A stretch of 64,000 nucleotides of DNA, taken from assembly GCA_002633005.1 (NCBI GenBank), contig NMRA01000835.1:1-64000 (forward strand), given 5' to 3'. Position 1 is the stretch's first letter. Every line of letters starts with the position of its first letter. The notes beneath the pieces were generated by a model. The model searched no databases and was not told where the DNA came from. It saw only the letters and a program-made list of their open reading frames with translations. Of this stretch, positions 2,338 through 53,005 are shown piece after piece. Origin of the DNA: Phoronis australis. Its lineage: Eukaryota > Animalia > Phoronida. Position numbers and translations under genes: made by a program.

Positions 2338-3334
2338 CATAGGCGGATTTAGGGGGGGCAGGGGGCCCCGCCCCCCCCCCTTGGCTGCTGCAAAAAAATA
2401 AAACAGTAAGAGCGTAGGGAAATGGTGAGTTTATTAATTAACCCCGGTAATTAAAATTATACGGATGAAAAAAAGATTTAAATGTGTGCAGTTTTAGTGT
2501 TGGGGGGGGCTCAAATCCAATTTCAAGTGTCAAATTCGGAACACGGCGCATTGGTAACGGAACTATGGCTAAGTATAGGCTCTCCCGCGATTTCCCAGGT
2601 GACCGGCAGTGGCGCTGCGCACTACGACTCCGTTTCCGTCGTCTGCTCCACTGTGCAATGAAGAAAATTTACTTCAATTTTTAAAGAAAATGGAATCTGA
2701 GTGAAGATGAAAAAACAGAAGCTGCTGGTAAGATGTGAATTTTAATCCAAGCCTTAGTGAATCACTCAGAAACTCTCTTTGTCAAACCTTATCTTAAGAC
2801 GATTTCCAAAGCAATCCCGTCATTATTGCCAACATGAAAAATGGATTTGGTCTATTGGGCATTTGAAGACTATTTCAAATACGACAAATTTGTTAAGAAT
2901 TGATGGCACAAAATATAAAACGTGTAATAAGCATTACAAAAAGAAGTAGGTTTCGCGCGCAAACGCTGTGGACCATAAACAAGTAGGTCTTTTAATATGA
3001 AATCAGTGGTGTTATTCGTGGTGGTTTATTGGTAACGCACGCGCGCTCTATCCGCCAGGTTGTGAGTTCGAGTCTTTGATACTTGCAGTTTTTCCTGTTT
3101 GACACGTTCTCCGTTTTTTGCCGTGTTTTCTTGGATAATATATCAGGAATCAACGAAAATGCTTGATTTTTAGAGGTAAAAACAGAAAAATTTCCTGGGC
3201 GGGAGGGGGGCAAACCCCCTTCCGACCTCCCCCCATTCGGTGCTATGCGCATCTACAATCGTTCAGTTGGTGCAAATGCTTGCAGCCGGACAAAATGTTG
3301 GGCCCCCCCTTGTGATATCCTAGATCCGCCACTG
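2338..3334. mobile_element. ~1-kb non-autonomous DNA transposon (MITE), copy 1
   Basis: Imperfect TIRs CATAGGCGGATTTAGG ... CCTAGATCCGCCACTG; 5-bp direct flank ATATG at 2333-2337 and 3335-3339; closely similar copies at 18031 and 63415. Confidence 0.85.
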
Positions 3335-4827
3335 ATATGGGTGTCGCACGCAATATAGGTCCGCCCTCTTTCAGTACCATTGCGTACTGTAGTTTCTTAT
3401 TTGTTGAAAAAACTCTGGAAAGTTTGGTTGACATTACGCATATGGGTTATATTTACACTTTTTCGAAGTTTCAATCTTTGCTTTCACGGTTCAATAGGGG
3501 TCCTGATTAAGCGTTATTTTTAACGTTTTGAAATTTGAAAGTTACCATCCTTCACCGCTTCAACAACATTGTTTCCATGATCGACATCACCTGGATGTCA
3601 TATGTTTATGTAGAACGATTCTTACACCAATGCAAAATTTTATTTGAATAGTGGAAGCTAAGTGTGTCGTTGACACTAGTGAAATCTCCATTGGCAGGGC
3701 ACTCACAGCGCCCTCTATTTGCAATTCATGAACTGGGGTGTGTCCCAATGCTGTAAAAACTACTTAGATTCCAGGGCAAAACACAGCGTAACGGATAAAG
3801 TCCAGACTGCTGAGATCCATCAGACTTACAAGTGGGATGCAGGTACTACTTGTTGGGAAATTGCAAGACATGTTGCAGTACACTGAACCAAATTTCGGAA
3901 GGTTTGAATACTTTGTGGGCACTGTATTGTTGAACGTTGTTCATTTGGTGAAATAAATTTCGCCAAGTTTGGTGCTCTGCCTTCAATTTTTTTGTTTGCT
4001 CGAACTCTACAGGTCGCATTTTTCTTTCAATTTTCACAAATATCACACACAAGAGCTGAAACTCTATTGTTTTTTGTCATGATTGGATTCAAGATGGCGG
4101 GAGTGAAGGCCATTTTGTTTTTGAATTCAGATTCAAATGCTCATAGAAGCCGCGATAATTGACGTAAAAAGTTGAAAATCGGTATAGTTATAGATGAGGA
4201 CGTGTACTACAAATGCGTTTAAAATCTTTAACTTTTGGTTGAAGTTGACGGAAATATCGGACATCGCGCATGCGCAGCTCGGCTTCGGCACAAAATCATT
4301 TTGTCCTGTAGAGGGGGGATTGTCGAACCAATTGCTTCAAAAATTTCAAGCGTAGGTTTTCTTTAGCTAGCTATTGTCGAGTGTTGTTAAACCAAAAGTT
4401 TTTTTCAACTGAAAATGGCGGATTTGTAGCTTTTCAGCAATTTTCCATCGCGCTGGTCTTGCCATTTGTTGAACGGGATGAAGAAATTACGTAAATTTTT
4501 GCATGTGGATTTTCTGAAATATATTTTTTCATATGATCTGTTACAATAATTTTCAAACTTATTGTTTTGAGTTATTTGACCTTCCATTTCAAAAAAATGC
4601 AAAATTGGATTTTTTGAAGCGTTTATGGAATTTTGTGAATCTACTCCATTAGATACAGTTTGAACGTGGTTTCAGAAACCTGTTTCATTTTTTGAATTAT
4701 TACATATTTTTGATATCGCTATTTCTTTGATTAATGATTTTGTTGCGCTTTTGTTGGTTTACCTTCTACTGAACAAGACTATCATCTATTTCTTACTCAT
4801 TTTCGACAGCTTCGTTCGTCATATGAA

Positions 4828-4895
4828 TGTTATCATCATTTTCATCATCGCCACCTTCATCATCATAATCATCATCGTCGTCATCATATCCATCG
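4828..4895. repeat. (ATC)n-like degenerate microsatellite
   Basis: Run of catcatcataatcatcatcgtcgtcatc; explains the Ile-rich spurious ORF 4727-5065. Confidence 0.7.
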
Positions 4896-6020
4896 TAAAC
4901 TTTTCAGTTAATTTCGCCAAGTTACGCTTCTTTGAGTGCTTTCATTTTTTTATCCTTCAGGCTGTTTTGTATCAACGAAAATTGTTCACCATTCCGACCG
5001 ACTTACACAGGCAGTATACATTTCAGTGCATTTCAATTGTACAGCTAAGAAAGTCTAATTTGTAATAAATAGGTACTTTATTTTAGCATCTATTTCTTTA
5101 TTCCTGATAATGTCGGGTTCATTTCTTCACATTTAGTAATTTGTCCAAGTCACGCGAGGCATTTTGGATGGATTTTAGCACGATGTAAAGGCCGGAAAAC
5201 AATTTCCTCCTTAAATCCATATAGTAAGTCTCTATCAGTGACCTAACTATGGGAAACTCCTTATTAGGTCCATAGCTATCCGCACCTAATTCTTCTTACA
5301 GCACGCCATTTTAAAATTACAAGCTGTTGGACGTCTGTAAAATTCGACTCACGGATACTAACTTCGACAGTCAGTTCTGGGATGATACCAAAACTGAAGC
5401 CAGCGCCACCTATTTATTGTATTCGGCTAGCTCCGATCGTCCTGCCTTTAGTTGACTGCGCACTCAATGCGTTTTATTAACAAGGGAAATTTTCTTGTGA
5501 AATTAGCCCAGTAAACATATACCTTTTTACTAGCTTTAAAAATTTGCAAATGTTGGGTTAACTTGTCAAGAATCTTGGTTAATTAAACACCTCAATTAGT
5601 ATGTTTACCGATTAAGTCAGTAATTTTTGCCTCAATTTCAATTTTTATTATGTTTAAGGTCCCTTAGGAAAGAATTAACTATGTTCTATTTCTTGGTGAT
5701 TTTATTATTTTAGATGTAATTAACAAAAATGGCAAAAATATCTCATGCCACCTCATCTAATATCCCAAATTTGCGGTACTCTAACTTTTGCAAATAACGA
5801 CGACATTTATTTAACAGAAGCTACTGTGTTATATGTAAAAAAATGTGATTTGTCATATTTGCAATTTTATGCGACTTTGTCGTATTGTGACTGTTTACAT
5901 TATAAAAGACTTTCTGGCTCTCAGTGTTGGGGCGTTCCGTTATCCATTCCGGGAATATTTTACAATCGGAACAACTACACCCTTTTGGATGAGGTATCAG
6001 ACATTCAAAACGAAACCCGC

Positions 6021-10631: not shown

Positions 10632-11831
10632 TTATACTGAGTTCTCGCTGCTGACGGTTGACACGTAACTCATTTGTGATTCAGAACCAGTACCAGTAAC
10701 GGTGGTACCCATAGATTCCACAGGAAATGGAGGGATTTTCTTTCCACTTTCCATCTGCCATTTGCTAGTCGCAGGCGGTTTTTTGCATTTCTTTCTGTAG
10801 CAATTACAGAGCAAAAAGCAAAACGGTCCAACCAATATACACGAGACTGCGGCAATGATGCCGTAGAACATAGCCCCGGCTGTCTTACTTCCAACTCTAC
10901 ACACATTCCCTAGAGCTGAAGTGTTGTGCTGCATACATATCGGTGCCGGACACTTCACCTTCTCTCCCGCTTTTGTGAAGCAGAATGGTGTATCCATTGC
11001 AGAACCTTCAAAGTTTCTGCACATGTTGTGATCAGCCTTGAATTTGTCTTTTAAAACATTCACCGTCGACGTCCACGGCGCGCACTCTGTTCCCCAGATT
11101 GTATGATGTATTGGCCCCACGTAATCATATCCATGTCCTGAACTGTTCCAACAGCCAGGATCACCGGTGTAAACACCAAATTCACAAATTGTGAATTCTT
11201 CACCTTGACCTTTCTCGCGCTGTAGCCTCACGGTGTCCCCCACCAGTCGACTACTGCACTTGAATAGCCCGGGAGCTCTTGACGGAAGAAGATTTCCTGG
11301 ATCAGCATGTGATGTACAGCTGCCGACCATCTTGTCTCCAACCATGACAACTAAGGAAAATCTTTCCAATAGGTTTTCATATCCTAATCTATTCAGGAGC
11401 ATAACGTAGTTTATTGCTTTTCGCTTGCCCAGTTCTACTTGTATCCAGTTTGGAGTTTCGGTTGCGGCCGTACGCGCACACGCGGGTCGGTCGAGGATGT
11501 CTGTAGGACCTCCTGAGTCTCCCGCCTGATATTTGTTATACCAGTAGCCGTCAGTGGCTGCCCCCACACCCGGTCTTCCATCTGTGCTCTGTGTGACAGT
11601 TTTGTTCAGAGAGTGGTTTTCAAGAGTGCCCTTCTTGCACGCTTTGTCTTCGTAGCATGTGACCAGTCTCGTGCTGGGACCTTCGCATTGCCCAGTACAC
11701 GACCTCTGCTGGCAGATGCTACACGTCTGACAATTGCGCCAAGCATTAATCCATTTCGACCACTGGCCCTCACAGGTGGCGCTTTCAACCAATAGCATCA
11801 TAGCAAGCAGAATCGTCACTGGGGACACCAT
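10632..11831 (-). CDS. Single-pass membrane protein: signal peptide, TSP1 repeat, F-type lectin (FTP/F5/8-like) domain, kringle, TM, cytoplasmic tail (399 aa, one coding exon)
   Basis: Hydrophobic N-terminus; WSKWINAWRNC...RSC..C.G TSP1 pattern; QST..A.DG..C..T..W.QVELG..V.L.NR..CEFGVY FTP pattern; kringle Y.G..T..G..C..W..N.CRN..P.CFT..C...C; TM MFYGIIAAVSCILVGPFCFLL followed by basic RKKCKK. Confidence 0.88.
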   Translation of the reverse strand: MVSPVTILLAMMLLVESATCEGQWSKWINAWRNCQTCSICQQRSCTGQCEGPSTRLVTCYEDKACKKGTLENHSLNKTVTQSTDGRPGVGAATDGYWYNKYQAGDSGGPTDILDRPACARTAATETPNWIQVELGKRKAINYVMLLNRLGYENLLERFSLVVMVGDKMVGSCTSHADPGNLLPSRAPGLFKCSSRLVGDTVRLQREKGQGEEFTICEFGVYTGDPGCWNSSGHGYDYVGPIHHTIWGTECAPWTSTVNVLKDKFKADHNMCRNFEGSAMDTPFCFTKAGEKVKCPAPICMQHNTSALGNVCRVGSKTAGAMFYGIIAAVSCILVGPFCFLLCNCYRKKCKKPPATSKWQMESGKKIPPFPVESMGTTVTGTGSESQMSYVSTVSSENSV

Positions 11832-13841
11832 TAGCTTACGACTTCTAAATAAATCCTCAACTCCTCGTATGTGTAATGGAATACTTGCGTGGCGTTACAT
11901 CTCCAAGTGCTTTGACGGTGTCCTTTAATATTAACCAAATGTGCTTAGCTGGGATACTAGCATTTGACTAGGCTATTTTGAAACCACGTGAAACTTGCTT
12001 TTTATTATTCAGTTTTTGACGTGTACAGTTTCCGAAAGACGCCAAAATAGGCACACGGGATTTTCGTAGATTTAAGACAATACGCTTCCCATTTTGTTCC
12101 AGACACTGGTTTCTTGTCTCTTCTGTGGACTTCTACCGACACAACTGCCCCTCAGATGTATTATTAAAACATTCCACAAATGTATTTGCAAATCGGAAAC
12201 ACGTTGCCACAATTAAAAAAAAAAACACGTCATCAATTGTTTCAAATCGCTTTGGCCTCTTCCACTGTACTGCTTTTTTTCCTAATTTCTCTTCAGTTTG
12301 CTTTAATCTTTTACGTGAGTTTGGAGAAAACGTGAGCTTTTAAAATTCCAACTCATTTTCAAATAGTGAATAGAGAAAGACCAACCACCAAGAACCGCAG
12401 TATCCTATTTGTGACTCAGAGAAAATGAATTTTTAGTTGACATCTTGCTGCTGTTGGCAGATCAAGGATTGGCTAAAATCATCAATCAAAATAAGGTTTA
12501 GTATTATTTTAACACAAAACTTAAGCCAAAAACTTAAATAAAACTTAGGAGTTCTTTATTGAAACGGCCTTGAGACAAATTTAAGTTTTATTTTAAAACT
12601 GACTGAAATTAAAGATTTGTCTTAGCTGAGTCAGTTTTCTTGGAATGGGTTCCGGATCTTTGGAGCCTGTTATGAACTGTTATGAAAATGACATCGTCTA
12701 TCTCACATTTTTATAGCACTATCTGTAGCGATTTGCTGTTTCCTTTGTTTCTGGCACTAGAACCTGTCAATTCCATATCAGAATAATAAATATAAAGAAA
12801 TGACACTTTGTTCTTAAGAGTCTAATGATGTCAATCAATTATTACTCATTGACGCTGCCGACTTTCTCCACGGTAGTTAAGCATTTACCAAAATGTAGTG
12901 CAACTTGTTAACACTGTCAAAACTTGACCATTTTCCGATTTGAACGTGTTAAAGAAATAATCTGGGCGATATGCTAGTAGCAGCAGCAGCAGCAGCAGAT
13001 TCTAATCCCACGCGTTAAATAGCGAAGTGCTTTAAGAGCATTTAATTCGACAAGATACCAGTCTTGATTTCAACGAATGGCTGGCAGACAAGGGCTAGAA
13101 TTGGCGATTTGTCATGAAATCACAAAAACCACAACGGATTTTGTTGTTTTGTAGTTCTATTCAAAGCTGATGCATGTAACTTTAAGAAGTTTGTACCGTC
13201 CGACAAAAATCCCAAAACTGCGTTTTTCGACCGTGACGATGTTCCTTTAATGTAAATGAAAAAAATTACTTGTGTATCTGCATTCTTGTCTATTTCACAA
13301 GTGTAGAGCATATAAATATGTGATTGCGTAATGTTTTCCGGAATAATTTATCAGCGCAAGGTGTACCTGATGTGCATCGATTTCCGGGCAGTAATGTTAA
13401 ACATTGTACAGTATATTACGGTAAACTTATGTTTATGAAAATGACATAGAAATTGAAATTATTCCGACTTGAATGTTCCTCCTATTTCGCACAAAATAAC
13501 AGCCACAGTTTTCATTTTCCAAAAGCTGATAACGTTTCTGCAAAATTTGGAAACGTTACCAAAAGTTGTTTTATGACATCTACGTAGTACAAACTATGCT
13601 AAATTTTCTTAATCTTTACTTTTTGAAGAACTTTGACAAAATAGAATTTCACCTATCGGCACATTGTGTACTAAATAACTGAAGAAGAGTTACCGTAATT
13701 CATATCTGGTCAAATTGTTATCGGACGGACAAAGGGATCTCATATTATGCTATCATTACAGCCAGTATTGCATGTATTGCAACCCAGCTGTTGTTAGACA
13801 TTGGATTCAAAGCGATTATCGGGTTTTTACGGCAGGAAAAC

Positions 13842-39713: not shown

Positions 39714-40363
39714 AAACCGAGACCTTCACATTTTTTAAAATGGATATTCATTCTTATAATCAGTTGTTGACGTAAGCTCGTTAGATAACGACTCTCGTTT
39801 TGGATGCCTGTGGGTTGAACCATGCAGGCTCCTAGCAGTAAGAATAAGCGTCAGAAACGAAACTGTTGTCCCCTTTGGACGACTGTTCTTATTGAGCTTT
39901 CAGCATTCTACAAGCACAAACCGGAGGTCCCGCGTAACAGATGGATATCCAGCATCGAGGTGTCAATAATCAGTCCACATCATTGTCCGGCAAACAATAT
40001 CAAGCAAAATTTTCATACCTTTGCCAGGTACACTCCTNAAACCGAGACCTTCACATTTTTTAAAATGGTTATTCATTCTTATAATCAGTTGTTGGCGTAA
40101 GCTCCATTAGATAACGACTCTCGTTTTGGATGCCTGTGGGTTGAACCATGCAGGCTCCTAGCAGTAAGAATAAGCGTCAGAAACGAAACTGTTGTCCCCT
40201 TTGGACGACTGTTCTTATTGAGCTTTCAGCATTCTACAAGCACAAACCGGAGGTCCCGCGTAACAGATGGATATCCAGCATCGAGGTGTCAATAATCAGT
40301 CCACATCATTGTCCGGCAAACAATATCAAGCAAAATTTTCATACCTTTGCCAGGTACACTCCT
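39714..40363. repeat. ~325-bp tandem duplication around a single N (probable assembly overlap)
   Basis: 39714-40037 is repeated at 40039-40363 with about 4 differences, all near the 5' end. Confidence 0.85.
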
Positions 40364-42439
40364 AATTGACGGCGCCTGAAAACAGCACGAGACCTTTGAT
40401 GTTTAGTTTTCCAAATCCTCAATCAGACAACACTATTATATTAGATGACCTAATCAATCCGTCTCGTGCAGCGCGCGCATGAAGACCGCGACGGAAAGTT
40501 GCTGGCAAATTTTTGGAAATTGCGCCTGATGGGGTGGATTTTGTAAATGAATTAATGGGGCGTAAACTTAAGCGTTGTAAATGGTTGGTAATTTGTCGCA
40601 ATGGGAAAAGAAGCTGAAATGATTAGTTAGTTGATTTGAGCAATATAGCCGCGTTTAATGATGGCGTCCCTTTTGTTGCAAGCTAATACAATCATTCCTT
40701 ACATTACGTTAAATATGTGACCTCAGTCATAAGACGGCTTAGCTGCGGGGAATAAAATTGAAATATACAAAACTAAACAATGATATTGATAACAGTTATG
40801 ATCATAATAGACACCTGGTTATGAAATCTGAGCATAATGTGAAACTCTACTCTAATGCAGTGTATCTGGGAAGGTAGACCATCTAAGTTTAGATAAAACG
40901 TGCACGAGAAATGTGAACTGAAAATTTTTGTAAATTTCCTACCATAACTACAAACAAAGAGTAGCTCATAGCTAGCCCGAATACATGCGTCTTTAGAACC
41001 ATATGCGTCTGCATGTTAACTTGCGCCTACAACAGAAATCAGGCATATTCGCCAATATGCAAAAAACTCCGTAAAAGCTAGGAGCAAATGCCATTACAAA
41101 ACGGTAGACATTGACGTGTATACTAGTTAACTGGCACTAAATATGGACACACCCAGGAGATTACCGCCTGCGCCTCAAAGAGTAAAACGCATCGCTTTGG
41201 ACATAGCCGCTTAGACGATACATTTGAAACACCGTAGTTAACAATAATCATGTTCCGCATCAAATAATTTTCTAGTTTCCGTCTTCTAGAGCGCACGTGC
41301 GTTAATGCGCACTGGAACTATTACCGCTGCAGTGAAAGCGGCAGCAGGTGATAACGCCCGGCGCTTGCTTACTTTCGGGCTTGATTACTGTTATTCTACT
41401 AAAATCTATGACTCGCTTAAATATTTACTATTGATTACCAGTTTACAACAATTGTTCACTGTGATTTGACCCCGCGGACGAATTCGTTTAATCACCATCA
41501 AAAGCATTTAATAATCTCATTAATCTACCCGCTCAGGTAGCTGTATCGAACATATTCCCATCGACGTGTTAAAAGTTATAATGCAGTTCAAATCACAAGG
41601 ATGAAGGCAACTGAGGCGTTCTTGTTCACTTTGAAAATTTCAGATTTTTGTAGATGAGAACCCGAAATTAACGCCAGTTGGCAAACCAATCAAACGACTC
41701 TACATACGCGGTACAATGTTTAAAAAAGCCTTCTTGTGAATGCAAAATTAGATAAATATCTTTCAAGATAACGATGAATATATTGACCTCAATGTTTCAA
41801 GCCATGTCAAGGATATCAATACAATTTCGACTGTATTCACTGGAATAATGAAGTGCGTTAATTCATTAACATAAAATAAAAACTAATTTGGTGGAAGCTT
41901 GCACTTGCGCTTGGTTGAAATTTAGTGATACGGTCGCACTTCACAACTGATAAAAAGTGTTTAGCCAAATATAGATACGAAAAGATACTTGACCTGAAAT
42001 TTCACGAAGTTTATAACCGGTTTAAGGCTATGTAGGACGCTAGAAAAATGTTCAACTTTGTAAAACCATATCTCAGAAATGGCTGTAATGAAATTTACGC
42101 ATATTACACCATTGTTTGGAATTTGTATTTCAAAATAATTCACCCATGCATGAGGAGCTAAAGATAAGACTTTTGTGATTTTCATGAAAAAGTTACATAA
42201 AACGAAAACGAGATGACAGTATAGAAAAAGGTAGCGACGTGTTTTGATTTCCTCTTGAACATTGATATTAAACTCAATTTGGTCATTTTACTGATACCGT
42301 TGCTTAGCTGTAAGTGTGTAAATTTTTCTTGTTTTTTCTAAAAAGGCATGGTTACTTAGTGGCAGATTAGTACAGTGTCGACAATCAAATTCCACAGACG
42401 TTCTGCTTCGAGAAAAGTTATACCTTTAGTAACTTAAAA

Positions 42440-42838: not shown

Positions 42839-43225
42839 CATCATCTAACTTGTAAACTCGTGGTTGGTGCAGTTCAGGACTAATAAGGGTTTCCCAAAAA
42901 CCAGTTTGAGAGGGTTGTATATTACTTAGAATACAGTAATTATACAGGTAGCACATAAATTGGACTGGGGATCGCCAGGTGTGTAGAGTAGTTACAAATG
43001 AAATACTGGCAAATACTTTAAAGAGTTCCCACCATGCATTTTCTTAGTTTTTGAGGTTTCAGTTACCTAATATGAAATGAATATCATAAAATTTAACTAA
43101 ATAAGCATTTTTTATGCCAAATAGTCGCATTTTTTTTGATTTTGAAGAAAAAATAGTTACTCTCAACTTTCCCGCCAAATGACGCTATGGGTGGAAGACG
43201 TTTGGCCACTTGATAATCAATTGCA

Positions 43226-44948
43226 ATGGCGGAGTACAGCAGATCAGAAAACGACGACGATTTTGAACGAGAACTAGACAGCTATTATGCAGACAGAGAG
43301 GCGATTGGATACGGGGATCACTCTCAAGTGCTAGAAGAATCCGACAATGAGTTTGATTTCCCACTTGGGGAACTTTCGTCAGCTTTGAGACCGTATGAAC
43401 TCGACCCACCTGCACGAGAACTGCCGCAGCCACGTCGAGCGGAATCCCCCCCTTCTGGAGACTTCAGGGCAGACATTTCTGAATGGTAGGTACCCTTCTT
43501 CATTTATGCTTCTGTGTTCATATTTGCATTAATTTGAAAAACACGTACTCCTCACTTGGTATTACCTTGTCCTCGGCTGTGTCTGGGCCGAGTTCCGAGT
43601 AGCCGCCATATTGTTTATTATGGAGTTCGCAGTCAGAAGGCCTACCGGCTGTCGTACGACAGCGGTTAGCTGCACGACTAATTGCCATGCTCGTATTTAT
43701 TGCTGATTGGAGCTCTGATTGATTGTATTTTATTACTTTCAAAAAGCATGCAATCGTTACACCTTTAGCTCAATTTAGCACACTCAACTGCCAACACTTT
43801 CCACGGACGGTAATCGGCGGTCAGTGTGTCTTCGCCTGAGAAGGCTGTCCAGATGGCTGATTTTGATATCGTCTTGCACAGGGCAACATTATCACTTGAG
43901 ACAGAATAGATAGATAGCAATTTGGCACTAGTTGGATATAATGCACCCTGATTTAGAGATTAGATTGGATATGGGAGGATTTTAGAAGGCTCGCACCCCC
44001 TCTTTTTGGGGCCTACAAAAAATGTTGCCATTGCCCCACCCCCTGGGAAATCCTAGACCTCACAGTGATATAGAAGGCAGAGTAAGTGAATGGAGTTTTT
44101 GCCATATGTAACCCTCAAATTTTATTCGTAGGGGTAAACCTCAAAGACTTGATAATTTTGAAATTTAGAGGAACTTGCAGTATAAAATTATGGTTCCTCG
44201 GTCAGCGGAATATACACTCCAACACAGTTGCCACAGTTTCCTTGATCACCCCCCTGCCAAAATGACGTTACAGTTACTGCTCGTCGTATCACCTTGCCCC
44301 ACAACCATTGAGACTGCTTTTTATGAGGCCCTAATGTATACAATGCATATTGTGGCACTGGATGAAAGGAACTGTTGTGGTTCCATCACTGAACTGTTGC
44401 ACACTTCCACGGCATTACTTTACAGCTGAATTTATTGGATCATTCCACAAAAAAAATCCGAGATGATTAATTTTGATTCTTGCTTCTATGGTTTCACACC
44501 GAAGTCGTTTTATATTGTCATATTCACATATTTCAGGTGCACATGTGGAAACTGTCAACTGACACCGGTGCCAACGGAAAGAGTGTGTTGCCAAGAGATA
44601 AAGCAAGTGAAACAGAAGCTGCAAAAAGAACTAGATCGAGGAGGCCTTAGCAAACCCAGGCAGTGTATAACATATCACAGGGGATTTGACAACGTTTGTT
44701 TGGACCCTGATGTGCTAGAGATCAGTTGGGGGCAGTATAAATTCCATTACCCCGATGGTTATGAAGGACCATACGATCGCAAAATGAGACATACTGCCTA
44801 CCGACAATTCCAACGTTGGATCCATGGGTTCTTGGGGCGACGTGTGAGAGTGGTTATACCTGCCTGTGCTGTAGCTAAAATACGTGCTAACTTCCCGCCT
44901 CCAGGAAATGAAGAGGACTATACATTTACTGGATTTTCTTTTGATTGA
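43226..44948 (+). CDS. KolX accessory protein (P2X7 cytoplasmic ballast/Nanor-like Cys-rich domain), 2 exons, 223 aa
   Basis: Exons 43226-43485 and 44537-44948 join as SEW|CTCGNC; motifs PYELDP, WCTCGNC, ERVCCQE, CITYH.GF..VCL, RHTAYRQF..W..G.LG...R.VIPACAV..IR..FP; AATAAA at 44983. Confidence 0.88.
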
Positions 44949-46238
44949 TGTACATAGCTCATTAGAATCACTTAGTATTTTTAATAAAACTGTATATTAC
45001 GAACTTCAGTAGTCACATTAATGTAAATAATTGCTTTCCCACATGTCCTTGGCATTACTCAACAATATAGACTGTGGTGTAATACTACAATCTACTATTA
45101 TGAGACCAAACGTTCAATTACATTAGCGTGATACAAGTGGTTCAATTACATTAGCGTGATACAAGTCCCAGATTGGCTGTGACTTCCTTTATGCAAAGTA
45201 AGCCATGCTTTCTTTTTTGACATTGGTTAGACATGTCGATGTATTGGATTACTAGGAGAATCGACATGGAATCTAGAGTCCAAGGACTTCTTTATGAGTA
45301 GTACCTTTGCTCTTTCCAGAAGAATTTCGACATAATGCTGTTATATTCTTTGAACCTTAACTGGATGAAAAACTGGTAACAGGCATTGACACTTGGAATT
45401 ATTTTACACGACAAACCATTGAGGCTAACAATCCTACAAAGCCACTGCTTTCACAGGTTTGAAATTCCTTAGAACTCTTGATATTTCTCTTACAACACTA
45501 GGAATTGCATTTTTGATAAATCTGACAATATTATGCAGTACAGTTGTCCCAGTTTTTGCACTGGGCCCATTACACAAGTTTCTCTTTGAATGGCTCTGAC
45601 TATACACACAAGGACTTATGGGTGATTTACTTTATGCACTTTCAAGGCTAAATAAGTTCTCCTGAGGTAGCTATTGCAAAATCCCGAAAGTAAGGCCAAG
45701 GCCTTGTTGCTCAAATGATGCATTTTCAGGGAACAGTTAAATAATGGCCCATCAGTTCTCAAGCTTGGAGATAATTTCTAACCTGGGTAAGGAACACAAT
45801 GAGGCCTACTGCATCAGTAGCGATGTTGGTTTTTGACGGGAGCGAATTTATTGGCCCTTAAAATGTTAAACCATGTCCTTACATGTGGACCAAAAAGGAA
45901 TTCATTTCCTCCAAAATTACGATCCTATCTATGAGCAATGTTAAAATGTTCATATTATTTATCAATCATCAATCTTTCCGAAAACAGTTTTAAGTAATAC
46001 AATTACAGCAGTATAAATAACAATCAACATGCAATCGGGGCCCAATCGTAACACCTGGAACAAAACTGGTAATTATATGACACTTCTGTCTCAGTATTCA
46101 ATCGCTAGGTAATATTTCACTCAACATTATTCTGCTTATTGACACAAACCGAAGGTTGAGGTTGATACGCGGAATAATGTCTCGTGGGATATTACTTTAT
46201 GTACGCCACTCTCGGTGCGTTTTCTGTATGTATCCATC

Positions 46239-49200
46239 TCAGGGGTACACATGCGGGTATCTGCTTCTTAGGGCCTCAGCCACTTCATGAGTGTCAACTT
46301 CAGGATACTCCGTTGTTAAAGGCTGAGGAGCATTTGCCTCACGCAAGTCGCGCAGATGTGTTGCCAGCTGAGGATTCTTTACGAGGTACATCACTGTGTC
46401 CATTAACTTATCAACATACGCTGAAAGATACAAAGCATAAGTTGAGAGCATATAGTGAGAAGTTAGCAAAACTGTCCTTCCTTTTGTCACTCCCTTGGTC
46501 TATGCAGCTTAAAACCAATCATGTTCTCGCGTTAAACCCAATTTTCTGCTTGCTTATGGTTTTTTGAGACCAAATTAATGGTAACTCAAACTAGTCTGCA
46601 ATTGCAGGAAACTCGTTTTGTCAGGTAACAGACTGTACATCTTAATTACCATATGTAGCCTCTACTCTTGTAGCTCGTGCGACTGGTTCGCCTCCTCTCC
46701 CTCGTGGAAAGCTCCTCTTCCACTTCAGAGACATGTCAGCTTTCCGTGCCAATGCTCTACCCGCATTTTCATTGTAATGTAGAGCCGCCAAGGTGAGCCT
46801 GTGAAGAAAACAGAAAACAAAATCCAAAAAATTATAGTTATCAAATATTAGTGGTGTTCTAGAAAAAATCACACAAAGTTAACATCTAAAAGTTAAATTA
46901 AGACCTCTAACTATATGACACCTTCAACACTAGTGGGTGCAAAGATTTCATCCAAAAATGGGAACATGTCATTGTTTCCAAATTACCTGCTTTTCATTGT
47001 GTGATAGTGGAAGTGGCGCATCTTAGGAGCAAATTCATTTACCACAGCATGAAATGCCTCTAATGAAGCTGTCTGTCCAAACGGGGACAGTTTCTGTACA
47101 TCTTTTTCCATCTGCCGGCTTTCCAGCACTTTAACCAGCTCCTCATATTGTTGCGATCCTGTGACAAGGACAAAGCAGACACTTTCAGGTTATTAACCTG
47201 AAAACAGGGTCTAAGTCATCAAATCAATGGCTGGATCACTTAGTTTCAAAATCAGTCATTTTCTATTTTATGGTATCCACTGTTATACAACAAGGAAATT
47301 TTAACCCAATTTTAACATGGTTGATGTTGCTATGAACCTGTGTGCTGCCAATATTATTGGGACCACAGAAATTGTCTCTTGCTCACAGCAGAACTGACAG
47401 TAAATTATTGCTCAAGACCATTCTAAGTTCATAAAATGACACTCTGGACCAAGCAAAGTTAATGAATCTGACCTCCAGCAACAACAGAGCTCAGAAATCA
47501 CTTCCAATATGACCAAGAACCTATCAAAACCAATTTTACAACTAAGATGAAATTACTTTTTTGCAGAGGACAGATTATCCGGACAACTGAACTTGCAATT
47601 TTCACGAATATTATGTTTTGTAGGTAAGCAGTCAGGAAATGCTCCGGCAGCAATAAACATACTTTACTTGTATTCTGCAAAGATTTTGTGATGTACTGAG
47701 ACATCCACAGAAGTCAAACAGTTGAAAGCTTTGTTGTCGCCTAATGGTTCAACCAATTAAGTGACTCAGTGGTAAAAATAAGTAAGTCAAATCAAAAAGT
47801 ATACCTGGCTGTAACCACTGCCTGGGTGAAAGTGCATCATGAGCACATCTTGGAAACAGGGGATGCTTGTGTACATGGATATCTGCAATATGATTGGAGA
47901 GGCTCCTCCACTTGGCCAATGCCAGCTCTCCATTCCCATCACTTGAGGTTGCGCACCAATACAAGTGATTGGTGATCGCTGGTTTCCACTTTCCCACCTC
48001 AGGGTACTTTTTTACGATGACTAATAATTTTTTATTCAGGCCTAAAACAAAGTGATATAATATTACTTTGCAATACATGTATAAAGTAGCAGCACATTGA
48101 TCAAATCAGAGTTTGTCTCAATGCTTTCCTTAACAACGCGTGACTTGTCACTCGTCAGTCTGCAATGACAATGACACGATCTGTTATTTTCTGTTGAGGA
48201 TACATGTAGTTTATCTGTTGGAATTTCCGAGAAAATAAGACACAGAAATAATCAGTCTATTACCTTTTGAAACATGCCAAATGTCAAAGAAGTGTTCATC
48301 TGGCCTCCAGTGGTCTCGAATCCATGCTGTTATCTGCGGGTGCCGGTCTGTAACTACTGTAATTTTGGTAGGCGAAGCAGTAGCCAAAAGCTTAACCTTG
48401 CATCTCTTCAAGCCTTCAAGCTCCATGTGGTAAGAGCTACCAACTTCATTTTTCTGCAACATATTTAGCTCATTAAAAATCAAAACCAATAATAGAGCCA
48501 ACAACATAAACTGTATATTATTCACATATCAGACTTACTTGAACTAATTGAATCCTTTTCATATCTCTTTTAACCTGAAAGAAAACCATTTGTGTACTTG
48601 AAACAGAAATATTACCTGGACAATTTCCATGGCTATGACCTTGTTTCCATGAAGGTCCATCAAAGAGTATGACCCGTACTTAGCAGAGTGGCCAGGGCTA
48701 CAATTTAAAGAGGAGAGATCGCAATTTTCTATGTGAACAACAATTCTAAGAAACACCATCCTGAAAATATAATTTCCGTTACTAATAATAACTTCAATTC
48801 CAGCATAGAACGTGTGTGCCTAATTATTTTAGGTAATACCTGCAATGACTCTCATGTGTGCCTAATTATTTCAAGTAATACCTGCAATGACTCTCATTGA
48901 TCGTTGTATTGTTGATATGAAAAGGAAATTATCATAACAGCACTTATTTATAAACAAAGACAAAAATTTACCTATCACATCTTGCATCACCACCAAGCAG
49001 AACCTCAGGAGCCAAATTAAGGAGGAGTTCCTCCTGCTGGTCACAATAGACTTTGTCTATAGCATCATGAAGAAATAGCCGTTGATGGCGAAAGAATGTG
49101 TTTGTATGATATGATTGAACACCAATGAACTGCAGCAAATTTTGTACTTTTGAAATTGAGCTGCCACTAAACAAGGTGGCAGCTGACAACAAGAGATTTC

Positions 49201-52200
49201 CTTCCGGGTAATCCCCAACAAATGGCTGGGAGTGCCAGGTGTAGCCAGGACACTTTAACGTATCGCAGTTCTGCTGCACAACAACCATCGTGCCCATCAT
49301 CTTCATGATCTGAGGGGAAGCCTTTTTCCTACAGAGGTGGCAGACATCAAATAACTTCAACAGTGAAGCCTCATACACGATGTACTTCCTGTTGGCATCA
49401 GGTTCGATGAAGTCAGGTGTTGACAATTTCCTAAAACGGTATTACAAATTACACGTTAGATTTATGTGCAATAATAGCTTACCTATCAATAGGCAAACAC
49501 AAAGGTAACTATGACTTCATTTATTATGGCGTTTTCCCGTTCTTCAAACTTGTTCAATTTTAAAACCCAACAGCAAGTTGGGAAGATGACCTGAGATTTT
49601 TTGCGAAATGTCAAATGTGAACAAAAGTTCAGTTAATATTGGTCAATATATTTCCCTAATTCTATAAGACCAAGTCATCAATTTTGATAAAAGCTTACTT
49701 GGGGCGCTTTTCTGGGCTAGATTCCTCTTCAGAAGAAGGACTGTACGAGGAATCTGAATCTTCAACAGGCGAGTCCAACTGAGGCTCCAGAGGTAGAAGG
49801 GGAGGTGAAGAGTCTGTGGTGGATGGCAATGTGGTATGAGTCTCCAGCTGAATCTCAACGTGCAGGGGAGAGGACGCAACAAGTGGGGTTTCTGCAGATG
49901 CAGCACACACTGTAGATGACGACATGGTAGGACCTGACTCGACACTCATCTCACCTTTCTTAAACCATCCTTCAAGATCACTGCCTGCAGGAAATAAATT
50001 GACAGCACTTTAGAAACAGACACTTGGCAAAACAGCGTTTCCGAAGAAACCAAATGTCATCTCAACAAGGAACAAGATGAGACCATTGTTACAGCATTAT
50101 CTGGTCTAAGTCAATCCTTTGTTTTTAAAGTCAGCACAATTAGCAAAATATCTAGTGTAAGAATACTGCAATCTTATTAAAAATATAATTTTTCTGAAAG
50201 TACAAATCCTGTACAATTTGCAGCATTTTTGACTTTTTACTAATCTAATATAAGTGGGTCACGTGACCACGTATTAGTAAAATTCAGGAAAAAGGAAAAG
50301 GTACAATGATAGCAAAACAATGGTATCAATTACGGTAACCATAACATGCATGATCAAATTTCACTTGAGATAAATTTTCTAAATGAGATATCAAAAATGC
50401 TGTTATAGTTTTTCATCATTTTCAATTCATGAAAATTAAAAAGTTTTTACGCAAATCACAAAATTCCTATTTTGGGATAGACCTTCACACAAAAGTGGAT
50501 AATTATAAAAACAAACCCTAACAACCTTTTCTATACCAGTGGATAAAGCATAGTACCTGAAGTTTTCATACGAGGTGTGATGTTCCAACGTAAGCCATGT
50601 TCAATACATTATAACACGTTATCTCTTTTAAAGTAAAGCATCTCAAAGCAATATACATATACAAAACAAAACAAAACAAAACAAAGCACAGCAGCAGTGT
50701 ACTGATGAAGGTCGTCCCTGACAAGATAATGCTATTATGGAGAAATACAAAATGCGCCTTCCTTCTGTCCATAGGCAAACCACTTCAGCCCATAAATTAA
50801 GTATACTATCAACTCAACTCAATAACCAAGTATTCATGAAAGGCATTCCCATGATAATCCAAACAAATTACCAGTAATTTTCGTTTGTGTTTCAGCATCT
50901 TGTTTGATAGGCTTCACGATGAGTTCTGTGTCCCAGGAACACATAAGTTTAGGTGGTGAAGGCGATGGAGCACGAGACACAGTGTGAGGAGCTTTCGGGT
51001 TCTTGGTTTGATGCTGCTTGGCAAGCGAACGTACTTCTTCACGAATCTAGACAAGTGCAAATTGAGAATATTTACCAAACCTAGACGGTTTGAAAAAAGT
51101 ATAAAAATAGCACTTTGACAGAGCAATACGATGTCAAAACGGAATTAACTCGATATGAAATTCCACAAGGCAATCACAAATTTATAAAATTCATGGCAAT
51201 GAACTTACCCTTGCAGTCTGAAGCTTTTTTGTCACCACAGCCCGTTCAGCCTTGCGTTTCGTACTCACAGCCACTCGCTGAGACGGCAATGTGCTTACTT
51301 TACCAGATATAGGTAAAACTGATGGCACACTGCCTGGAAGTAAGCGAAGACGACTGCAAAACAAATCCGAAGAATTTAGTTACTCACGCTGCATCCAGTA
51401 CAACATGGTCAAGATTTTCTTCCAGTATAATTCATGTATAAGCCTATGCATTTGCTACAGTGTATGGACTTACAAGTTACATGTTTGAAGGACTCTGCAA
51501 TGACATTGTAAGAACCCCCATGGCACATGGACTGATCAAGTCGAACACATCCACACCCGTCACACAAGAAAAGGCATCCGAGAATTACTTAGATGCATGG
51601 TAAAGAAAATCTAAATTAGAATCCAGTGCATGCTGTGTTCACTTGGAAATCCTATTGGCACACATCAGTGCTAAATTAAGTTACAGGATTCTCCAGTCTA
51701 ATCTGTCCAACAATAAAACAGTACAAATGTCATGAAGAGACTCACTGCAAAAAAATTGCAGATTTGAATGCGGCTTTGACGAAGAAAACTATAAGTGGGT
51801 TGAATCATGAGACACAAAGAACAGTGCTTGCATGATTGACAGTGTATTCACGACCAACACCCTTGGTTAATGGAGAATTGTAATGGCCTTCCTTGTTACA
51901 TTGAATGTTTGAGTATCACAAGTACACAACCTGCAGAATGTAGGTGCCATCTTGTTTACTGAAGAAGACCAGCGTAAAATTTTGCCTTCAAAGAATTACA
52001 GGCATTTGATTTCCTCCTCTGAATACTGCAGTAATAATCCAGTGTTCATACAGAAAGGTACTGAGTCACAACCAACTCAACTGAACCAAGGGGTGGTCAA
52101 TTTTCACAAAACTGACACTTTATAATCGCTGACAAAGGACAAAGTAAGCCTGGGTCACTCCTATTCACTATTGTCATGATGGAATGAACGTGGTAGGCAA

Positions 52201-52591
52201 TGCTTACTCCGTAGTCCGTAATGGCATAAGCCTACGAGGCTACGTGTAGTAGCACTCGATCTGGGCCGGAGTCGAGGGCTACTCCTCAATCGCCCTAGAA
52301 TAGAAGCAGTGTGTTCGTTATTTATAAAATTTGAAAATACACTTACAAGGTGGCGAGTCCTTCATCGTATCGCCGCTTCTGTGTGGGGTCGAAACACGAC
52401 TCGCTAAAATGTGACGAGCAAATGGTGGCTCCCGACCGGATCGCATGTTCAACAGTAACATTCCATACCCGAGTACGGCGCACAAACCGGTGCCATTTCT
52501 GTGCAACTTTGACATCTTTCGGGAATTTGAATGCTGAGACGTTCTCAGTCAAATTGCTGTTGCTACAGCCGCCACAAACGCACCTTTTCAT
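46239..52591 (-). CDS. Kolobok transposase with N-terminal THAP domain, DDE core and H2CH zinc motif; 11 exons, 773 aa
   Basis: Exons 52591-52347, 51353-51209, 51046-50872, 49984-49699, 49430-48972, 48697-48616, 48453-48264, 48041-47805, 47158-46987, 46798-46650, 46420-46239; all GT-AG and phase-compatible (2322 nt, no internal stop found). THAP: CVCGGC..FP..W..CSSHF..GSVPS. Core: GDARCDSPGHSAKY, VTDRH, DIWH, HLYWC, HIADIH..CAH, QTASLEAFH..FAPK, LAALHYNEN. Confidence 0.9.
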
Positions 52592-53005
52592 GACTGAAAA
52601 AAGGCAGCTACCCACGAACTTTCCTCTCGACTCCTTAGTTCAACACTGCGTAAACAACAACAATGGCAGAGACGGCCTTCCACCCGTTACGTAGAACAGA
52701 AAATATATTTTTTTTAATTTTTGGCTTTTTCTAAGCAGTAGGTATACTAAAGACTATTAAATCTCTTAAGATATATTAATAAAATTCTTTTTTGGTATAC
52801 AATGTCATGGTGGGAACTCTTTAAATATACACGGGTAACTCCATTTGTGACGAACGTACAATCAGAGAACATTTTGATCAATTGTGAAAAATATGTTTAT
52901 CCTAGGAAAACAATTAATACATCAATTGATAGGTCTCACTGATACCTTTCAAAGCGTGTATCAACTTTTAAACAGTCTTTTAATCTGAGAGAAAATTGCC
53001 TTTAA

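Follow-up and report, generated by a model that had tools for sequence, protein, structure and literature searches.

A two-gene element in the window

The window, a 64,000-nucleotide stretch of Phoronis australis DNA, contains a TTAA-flanked transposon with inverted ends, within which two genes converge: one encodes a transposase and the other a short protein, KolX (Table 1). The ends of the element are alike at 17 of 20 positions, 15 of them in a perfect match, and when all pairs of TTAA-flanked ends were tried the runner-up reached 13 of 20. The 15-mer of the inverted repeat occurs once on each strand, and the KolX start sits 204 nt inside the left end.

Table 1. Positions of the transposon, its ends and the parts of its two genes in the window.
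Feature	Position	Strand	Remarks
Left TTAA target-site duplication	43018..43021		
Whole Kolobok (Kol0-type) DNA transposon	43022..52820	.	9799 bp, no internal N
Left terminal inverted repeat	43022..43036	+	15 nt, starts AG (RR)
KolX exon 1	43226..43485	+	acidic, predicted disordered; predicted exon, splice absent from reads
KolX intron	43486..44536	+	GT..AG, 1051 nt; interrupts the Trp codon preceding CxCxxC
KolX exon 2	44537..44948	+	ballast (P2RX7_C) domain
Overlapping polyadenylation-like hexamers, AATAAA (+)/ATTAAA (-)	44980..44988		putative meeting point of both transcripts; function inferred
Transposase gene	46239..52591	-	11 exons, open 773 aa, convergent with KolX
Transposase exons 1-6	52591-52347, 51353-51209, 51046-50872, 49984-49699, 49430-48972, 48697-48616	-	
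Transposase exons 7-11	48453-48264, 48041-47805, 47158-46987, 46798-46650, 46420-46239	-	
Right terminal inverted repeat	52806..52820	-	15 nt, element end CT (YY)
Right TTAA target-site duplication	52821..52824		

The transposase has a THAP domain (PF05485, E 7.5e-11), followed by an acidic linker and a DDE core, in which the motifs GGDARCD (430), VTDRH (498), FFDIWH (519), an H/C cluster and SLEAFH (638) are found in the 773-aa model; these core motifs were judged by eye against the reference rows of Data S5. Among the Data S5 rows compared, the core is, again by eye, most like Kolobok_2_DR, and over 514 columns it shares 45% identity with an Antedon protein. Three traits of the Kolobok superfamily are present (TTAA duplication, 5'-RR/YY-3' inverted ends and DDE core motifs), as is the Kol0 (Kolobok0) trait, KolX as a second encoded protein. 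None of the accessories of KolobokP, D, E and H (His-Me finger, DEDDh, lambda exonuclease, RecQ) was found between the ends, which enclose the transposase and KolX alone. The Kol0 type family, Kolobok-1_XT, is described with TTAA, RR..YY ends, a DDE transposase and a seven-cysteine ballast-fold gene, as here, and the gene in the window does not differ in kind from the KolX of Kol0 in that description (PMC9587614). The gene is almost certainly KolX, and the element that carries it as its second gene is an intact Kolobok transposon of Kol0 type; the name given in a preliminary description of this DNA is borne out both by the P2RX7_C match presented below and by the Kolobok context. The Kolobok family to which the element belongs may be uncatalogued.

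Elsewhere in the window, a 420-aa open frame on the minus strand (10632-11894) has a signal-like start and a hydrophobic segment toward its end. From its sequence, the product is likely a single-pass membrane protein; it gives a weak Kringle match (E 6.9e-06) that lies under the Pfam cut-off. A near-exact tandem duplication of ~340 bp at 39760-40369, with N in the junction region and repeated ORFs, is possibly an assembly artefact.

KolX gene model and protein

Translation of KolX starts at the ATG at 43226, and the two exons join into a single open frame of 223 codons (223 aa), the Trp codon being divided TG/G by the intron. Among the 69 related loci that show the beginning of exon 2, 57 have an intron at this Trp codon and 10 lack one. 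The motifs quoted in the preliminary description were all located in the 223-aa translation: WCTCGNC at residue 87, ERVCC at 101, CIT at 130, RHTAYRQF at 171 and PACAVAKIRANFP at 195.

The N-terminal exon had been described as acidic and probably disordered, and this view is upheld by its composition (24 D/E versus 8 K/R across 87 aa), by a FoldIndex of -0.31 and by the full-length model of a relative, P0131, in which residues 1-80 are without secondary structure at pLDDT 50-72 and the ballast part reaches 87-98. A family motif, P-Y-x-x-[DE]-P, lies at residues 56-61. Exon 1 by itself matches no Pfam family, and BLAST with it returned weak matches (best E 0.017); its alignment with the N-terminus of P0041, a protein of Owenia fusiformis, has a local score of 69, which was equalled in 0 of 1000 shuffles (highest 62). 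The peak 19-residue hydropathy of KolX is 1.1, indicating that there is no membrane segment, and the ectodomain and two membrane helices of P2X are absent from the 223-aa protein. The match to P2X7 is confined to residues 477-594, and the earlier statement that no channel or transmembrane segment is present thus stands.

Read evidence for the two genes

Reads were drawn from four runs, as contigs for X1 and as raw reads for X2, X3 and X4. Nine CT..AC read joints, on the strand expected, confirm transposase introns 2-10 (nine of ten) in these four runs, in which no joint is listed over transposase intron 1 or over the KolX intron. KolX exon 1 therefore rests on homology. One X1 contig spans 44545-44969 with one difference, at a depth of 34 and with nothing in the intron. 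The depth over KolX exon 2 is 0 in X2, at most 2 (sense strand) in X3, and 0 in X4 except for a pile at 44524-44557, which was rejected as KolX expression because it is foreign, being 34 nt long and unanchored at either edge. The transposase is covered by reads and spliced in the three raw-read runs in which KolX exon 2 is near nil, so the two genes are not simply co-expressed. Minus-strand reads drop near 45025, giving a transposase 3' UTR of ~1.2 kb. Reads exit the left end into varied flanks (39, 29 and 172 reads at 43018 in X2, X3 and X4, respectively), suggesting either a multi-copy family or related families.

Transposase intron 1 (51354-52346) has an exon-like depth of 3-8 on the transposase strand in X2 and X3; the depth at 47233-47573, inside another transposase intron, is 0 in the raw-read runs. 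Retention of intron 1 would end translation just past the first THAP exon (82 aa), and the resulting peptide would miss the end of the THAP domain, although translation may start internally. The case is reminiscent of the P element, in which a retained third intron keeps the element off in the soma (PMC7776569). Other reads match KolX exon 1 at 85-90% and continue from ~43420 into sequence like 52066-52090. The ~43420/~52076 junction is seen in two joined reads and in loose ends in X1, in 15 reads of X2 and in 12 reads of X3. These reads likely come from a non-autonomous deletion family, ~1.1 kb long, in which the ballast exon and the catalytic core are missing and the THAP exon would be retained.

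Ballast homology and predicted fold

KolX exon 2 matches Pfam PF20478 (P2RX7_C) with an E-value of 1.1e-13 and 51.9 bits (cut-off 23.5), and in a phmmer search of the PDB rat, mouse and human P2X7 made up the top four of five matches (best E 6e-05). The structure predicted for exon 2 from 111 sequences has a pLDDT of 83.9 and a pTM of 0.80. With this model, the top 14 of 83 Foldseek matches are all P2X7 (TM 0.56-0.65), and the next match has an E-value of 2.4; in the VIA structure comparison P2X7 scores Z 10.0-11.6, with an rmsd of 3.1-3.5 over 108-111 residues, and the next match Z 3.5. The region matched is rat 477-594. The likeness to the ballast fold claimed at the outset is thus confirmed at the level of a predicted model, which superposes on P2X7 structures only (TM about 0.64, Z 10.0-11.6).

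KolX and the P2X7 ballast (PF20478; rat 6u9v and later structures) have in common the fold, the three cysteine clusters, RHxAYR and PxC..IR..FP. Unlike P2X7, KolX has no channel, no membrane helices and no match to ballast residues 395-476, and an acidic tail stands in front of its ballast domain. The helix after the CC pair (helix 22-33 of the model) is also longer in KolX, with 13 additional residues in the phmmer alignment.

Of 1115 candidates, 376 proved to be relatives in a profile search; they range from sponge to fish and are, with few exceptions, short and stand-alone. A full HMMER scan returned 1423 clusters at E <= 0.001. In the ESM Atlas, P2RX7_C clusters at 0.91, a recognition under the trusted level, and among viral contigs 19 pattern matches yielded no relative. 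The nearest sequence is P0041, with 65% identity over exon 2 and matching N-terminal motifs; it clusters with the KolX of the window and P0131 at 100/99 in the tree, in which the bootstrap is not settled. Stand-alone domains of the ballast type have been reported across animals, with GDP binding proposed from models (Rump 2020, PMC7016195). The ZCD proteins and zebrafish nanor of that study resemble KolX in being short and stand-alone, with a C-terminal domain and a variable N-terminus. The main text of Rump 2020 does not contain "transpos" and so makes no transposon link, whereas the KolX described here lies inside a complete element.

Zinc cysteines and GDP-site residues

The KolX of the Kol0 lineage has been reported to resemble human P2X7 476-595 and to have a ballast fold with two zinc ions and seven cysteines (Kojima and Bao 2022, PMC9587614). 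All seven ballast cysteines are found here, in three clusters: C88, C90, C93, C104, C105, C130 and C197. The first cluster is conserved in 71-72 of 73 relatives (37 of 110 rows are gapped there), and the remaining cysteines in 109-110 of 110. The CC pair was assigned by motif because phmmer misregistered it. The set of putative zinc cysteines is accordingly complete in the KolX sequence.

The picture for the nucleotide site is more mixed. From the rat P2X7 GDP contacts listed by Rump 2020 (PMC7016195), namely R546, H547, R574, R578 and K583, three of five are conserved in the phmmer alignment (R546=R171, H547=H172 and R578=R203), and R574 and K583 are replaced by V199 and P208. The arginines are retained in most relatives (R171 in 105/109, R176 in 107/110, R191 in 106/110 and R203 in 106/110); position 172 is His in 53/110 and Tyr in 54/110, and position 199 is Val in 100/110. 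C141 and R191 are near-invariant in KolX (106/110 each) and absent from rat P2X7. R191 aligns to rat F566, which adjoins A567 and L569, both reported as GDP contacts in P2X7 (PMC9859053). In P2X7, the adjacent subunit contributes its helix 9 to the GDP cavity (PMC9859053); KolX aligns only to the final 120 ballast residues, and by our reading of the residue ranges helix 9 appears to fall outside the match. A putative phosphate-holding pocket thus looks conserved in KolX, with R171, R203 and R191 near-invariant despite the loss of R574 and K583. Residue-level conservation of the GDP site may already be displayed in the KolX alignment of Figure S6 of Kojima and Bao (PMC9587614).

Linkage to transposases and selection among relatives

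The best 80 of 309 confirmed metagenome matches were taken as loci; they are redundant, with many copies of few families. A convergent transposase lies downstream of KolX in 47 of these 80 loci, and in 40 of the 44 with a downstream flank of at least 1.5 kb; none of the 80 has a transposase solely in another orientation. TTAA-flanked inverted ends were found at eight of 12 loci checked. KolX is retained across cnidarians, molluscs, annelids, echinoderms and chordates. In seven compact relatives (L014, L022, L024 and L027-L030), a nearly intronless transposase core adjoins KolX, and the span between TTAA-flanked ends is about 5.5 kb where both are present; these would be handy cognate pairs for modelling and assays. 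In L027 the transposase core occupies 3826-5292 on the minus strand and KolX exon 2 occupies 3032-3445.

Selection was estimated from 31 distinct open exon-2 frames, for which 15 of 465 pairs are unsaturated. The median dN/dS is 0.19, and 14 of the 15 usable pairs fall below 0.5, the pair L006/L074 standing at 0.55, close to saturation. As measured in this way, the ratios show purifying selection on KolX in relatives, the pairs coming from about two families, picked for open frames, and the window's copy being saturated against all of these relatives.

A THAP domain is fused ahead of the ballast domain in three of eight long relatives screened, one of which also has SAP. These database proteins (P0263, P0219 and P0223) fall on two separate tree branches and are candidate domesticated or rearranged Kolobok genes. 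P0231, in which MULE is joined to KolX, resembles a chimeric gene model and was left uncounted as a fusion.

Proposed function of KolX

We give about even chances to the proposal that KolX is a helper of the element's own transposase. According to this mechanism, KolX would be made from its own transcript and its seven cysteines would hold two zinc ions, forming the structural core of the protein. A pocket lined by R171, H172, R176, R191 and R203 would accommodate a ligand that carries phosphate; this could be the end of a DNA molecule or, as in P2X7, a guanine nucleotide. The acidic tail would make flexible contacts with basic protein surfaces. The target of KolX, acting in trans, would be the complex of transposase and DNA, perhaps during end pairing or strand transfer. 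The fixed convergent layout and the purifying selection in relatives favour such a helper, as do two published systems: the isolated human ballast (395-595) is a trimer that binds GDP with a Kd of 2.6 uM (Sander 2022, PMC9574498), and the P element depends on GTP to pair its ends and transfer strands (PMC7776569). Against it stand the missing equivalents of R574 and K583, the Tyr found at the H547 position in 54/110 relatives, the apparent lack of helix 9 in the matched region, the uncoupled read coverage of the two genes in the raw-read runs, and the fact that other Kolobok lineages transpose without KolX. No Kolobok transposition assay was among the papers listed in a literature search covering few subscription journals and no Repbase Reports.

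One alternative concerns the ligand and cuts across the other readings. KolX may have the fold and the zinc site in common with P2X7 and bind no free nucleotide, high-affinity GDP binding having arisen later in P2X7. The equivalents of R574 and K583 are missing in the window's KolX and across the family, and these two residues are reported to be lost outside mammals (Rump 2020, PMC7016195). This is quite possible, if somewhat short of probable, but the near-invariance of the R546 and R578 equivalents argues against it, as does the further invariant arginine, R191, which is placed at rat F566 beside the GDP-contact residues A567 and L569.

KolX could instead have an indirect role, in chromatin or against silencing, by which the promoters of the element stay open without any contact between KolX and the cutting complex. 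Its acidic, disordered tail resembles an activation region, and the fusions of THAP (in one case with SAP) to ballast domains in long relatives point the same way, as do a THAP fusion in Ixodes and the transcription role proposed for zebrafish nanor (Rump 2020, PMC7016195); purifying selection fits equally well. The fusions are, however, database gene models taken without their genomic context, Pfam finds no chromatin-reader or DNA-binding domain in the window's KolX, and a conserved arginine pocket would be left unexplained. We consider an indirect role rather unlikely.

A still less probable function is that of a brake, in which the acidic tail would mimic DNA, or the pocket would sense guanine nucleotides, and so damp the transposase. 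P elements encode repressors (PMC7776569), and KolX is a separate convergent gene with expression uncoupled from that of the transposase in the three raw-read runs. In those same runs, however, KolX is missing exactly where the transposase gene is transcribed, and retention from cnidarians to chordates would be easier to explain by a needed helper.

By analogy, Kolobok might be a split P element, with KolX as a separate guanine-nucleotide subunit and GTP gating end pairing or strand transfer. This is suggested by the P element's need for GTP, which is met through a domain internal to the transposase. The Drosophila P element transposase combines THAP with DDE, belongs to a related superfamily and sets a precedent for a guanine nucleotide cofactor (PMC7776569). 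Its GTP site is, however, an insertion domain within the transposase, whereas KolX is a separate gene, and the fold search gave no likeness of the P element GTP domain to KolX. We regard a split of this kind as improbable.

Domesticated KolX genes have been proposed (PMC9587614), but the idea that the gene is a nanor-type host gene adjoining a transposase by chance is very improbable and largely refuted by its position 204 nt from the left end, within perfect inverted ends flanked by TTAA, by the reads leaving that end into many flanks and by the identical layout in related loci.

Significance

The ballast homology of KolX is already published, as is the view that the P2X7 tail and nanor originated from it (Kojima and Bao 2022, PMC9587614), and GDP binding has already been proposed, so the finding brings no new concept. 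Its value is practical: the element suits a two-component transposition assay, which is feasible because its two genes have open frames, its ends match perfectly and nine transposase introns are confirmed by reads. Were KolX, improbable as this is, the guanine-nucleotide subunit of a split P element, the GDP of the P2X7 ballast would be a relic of transposition chemistry.
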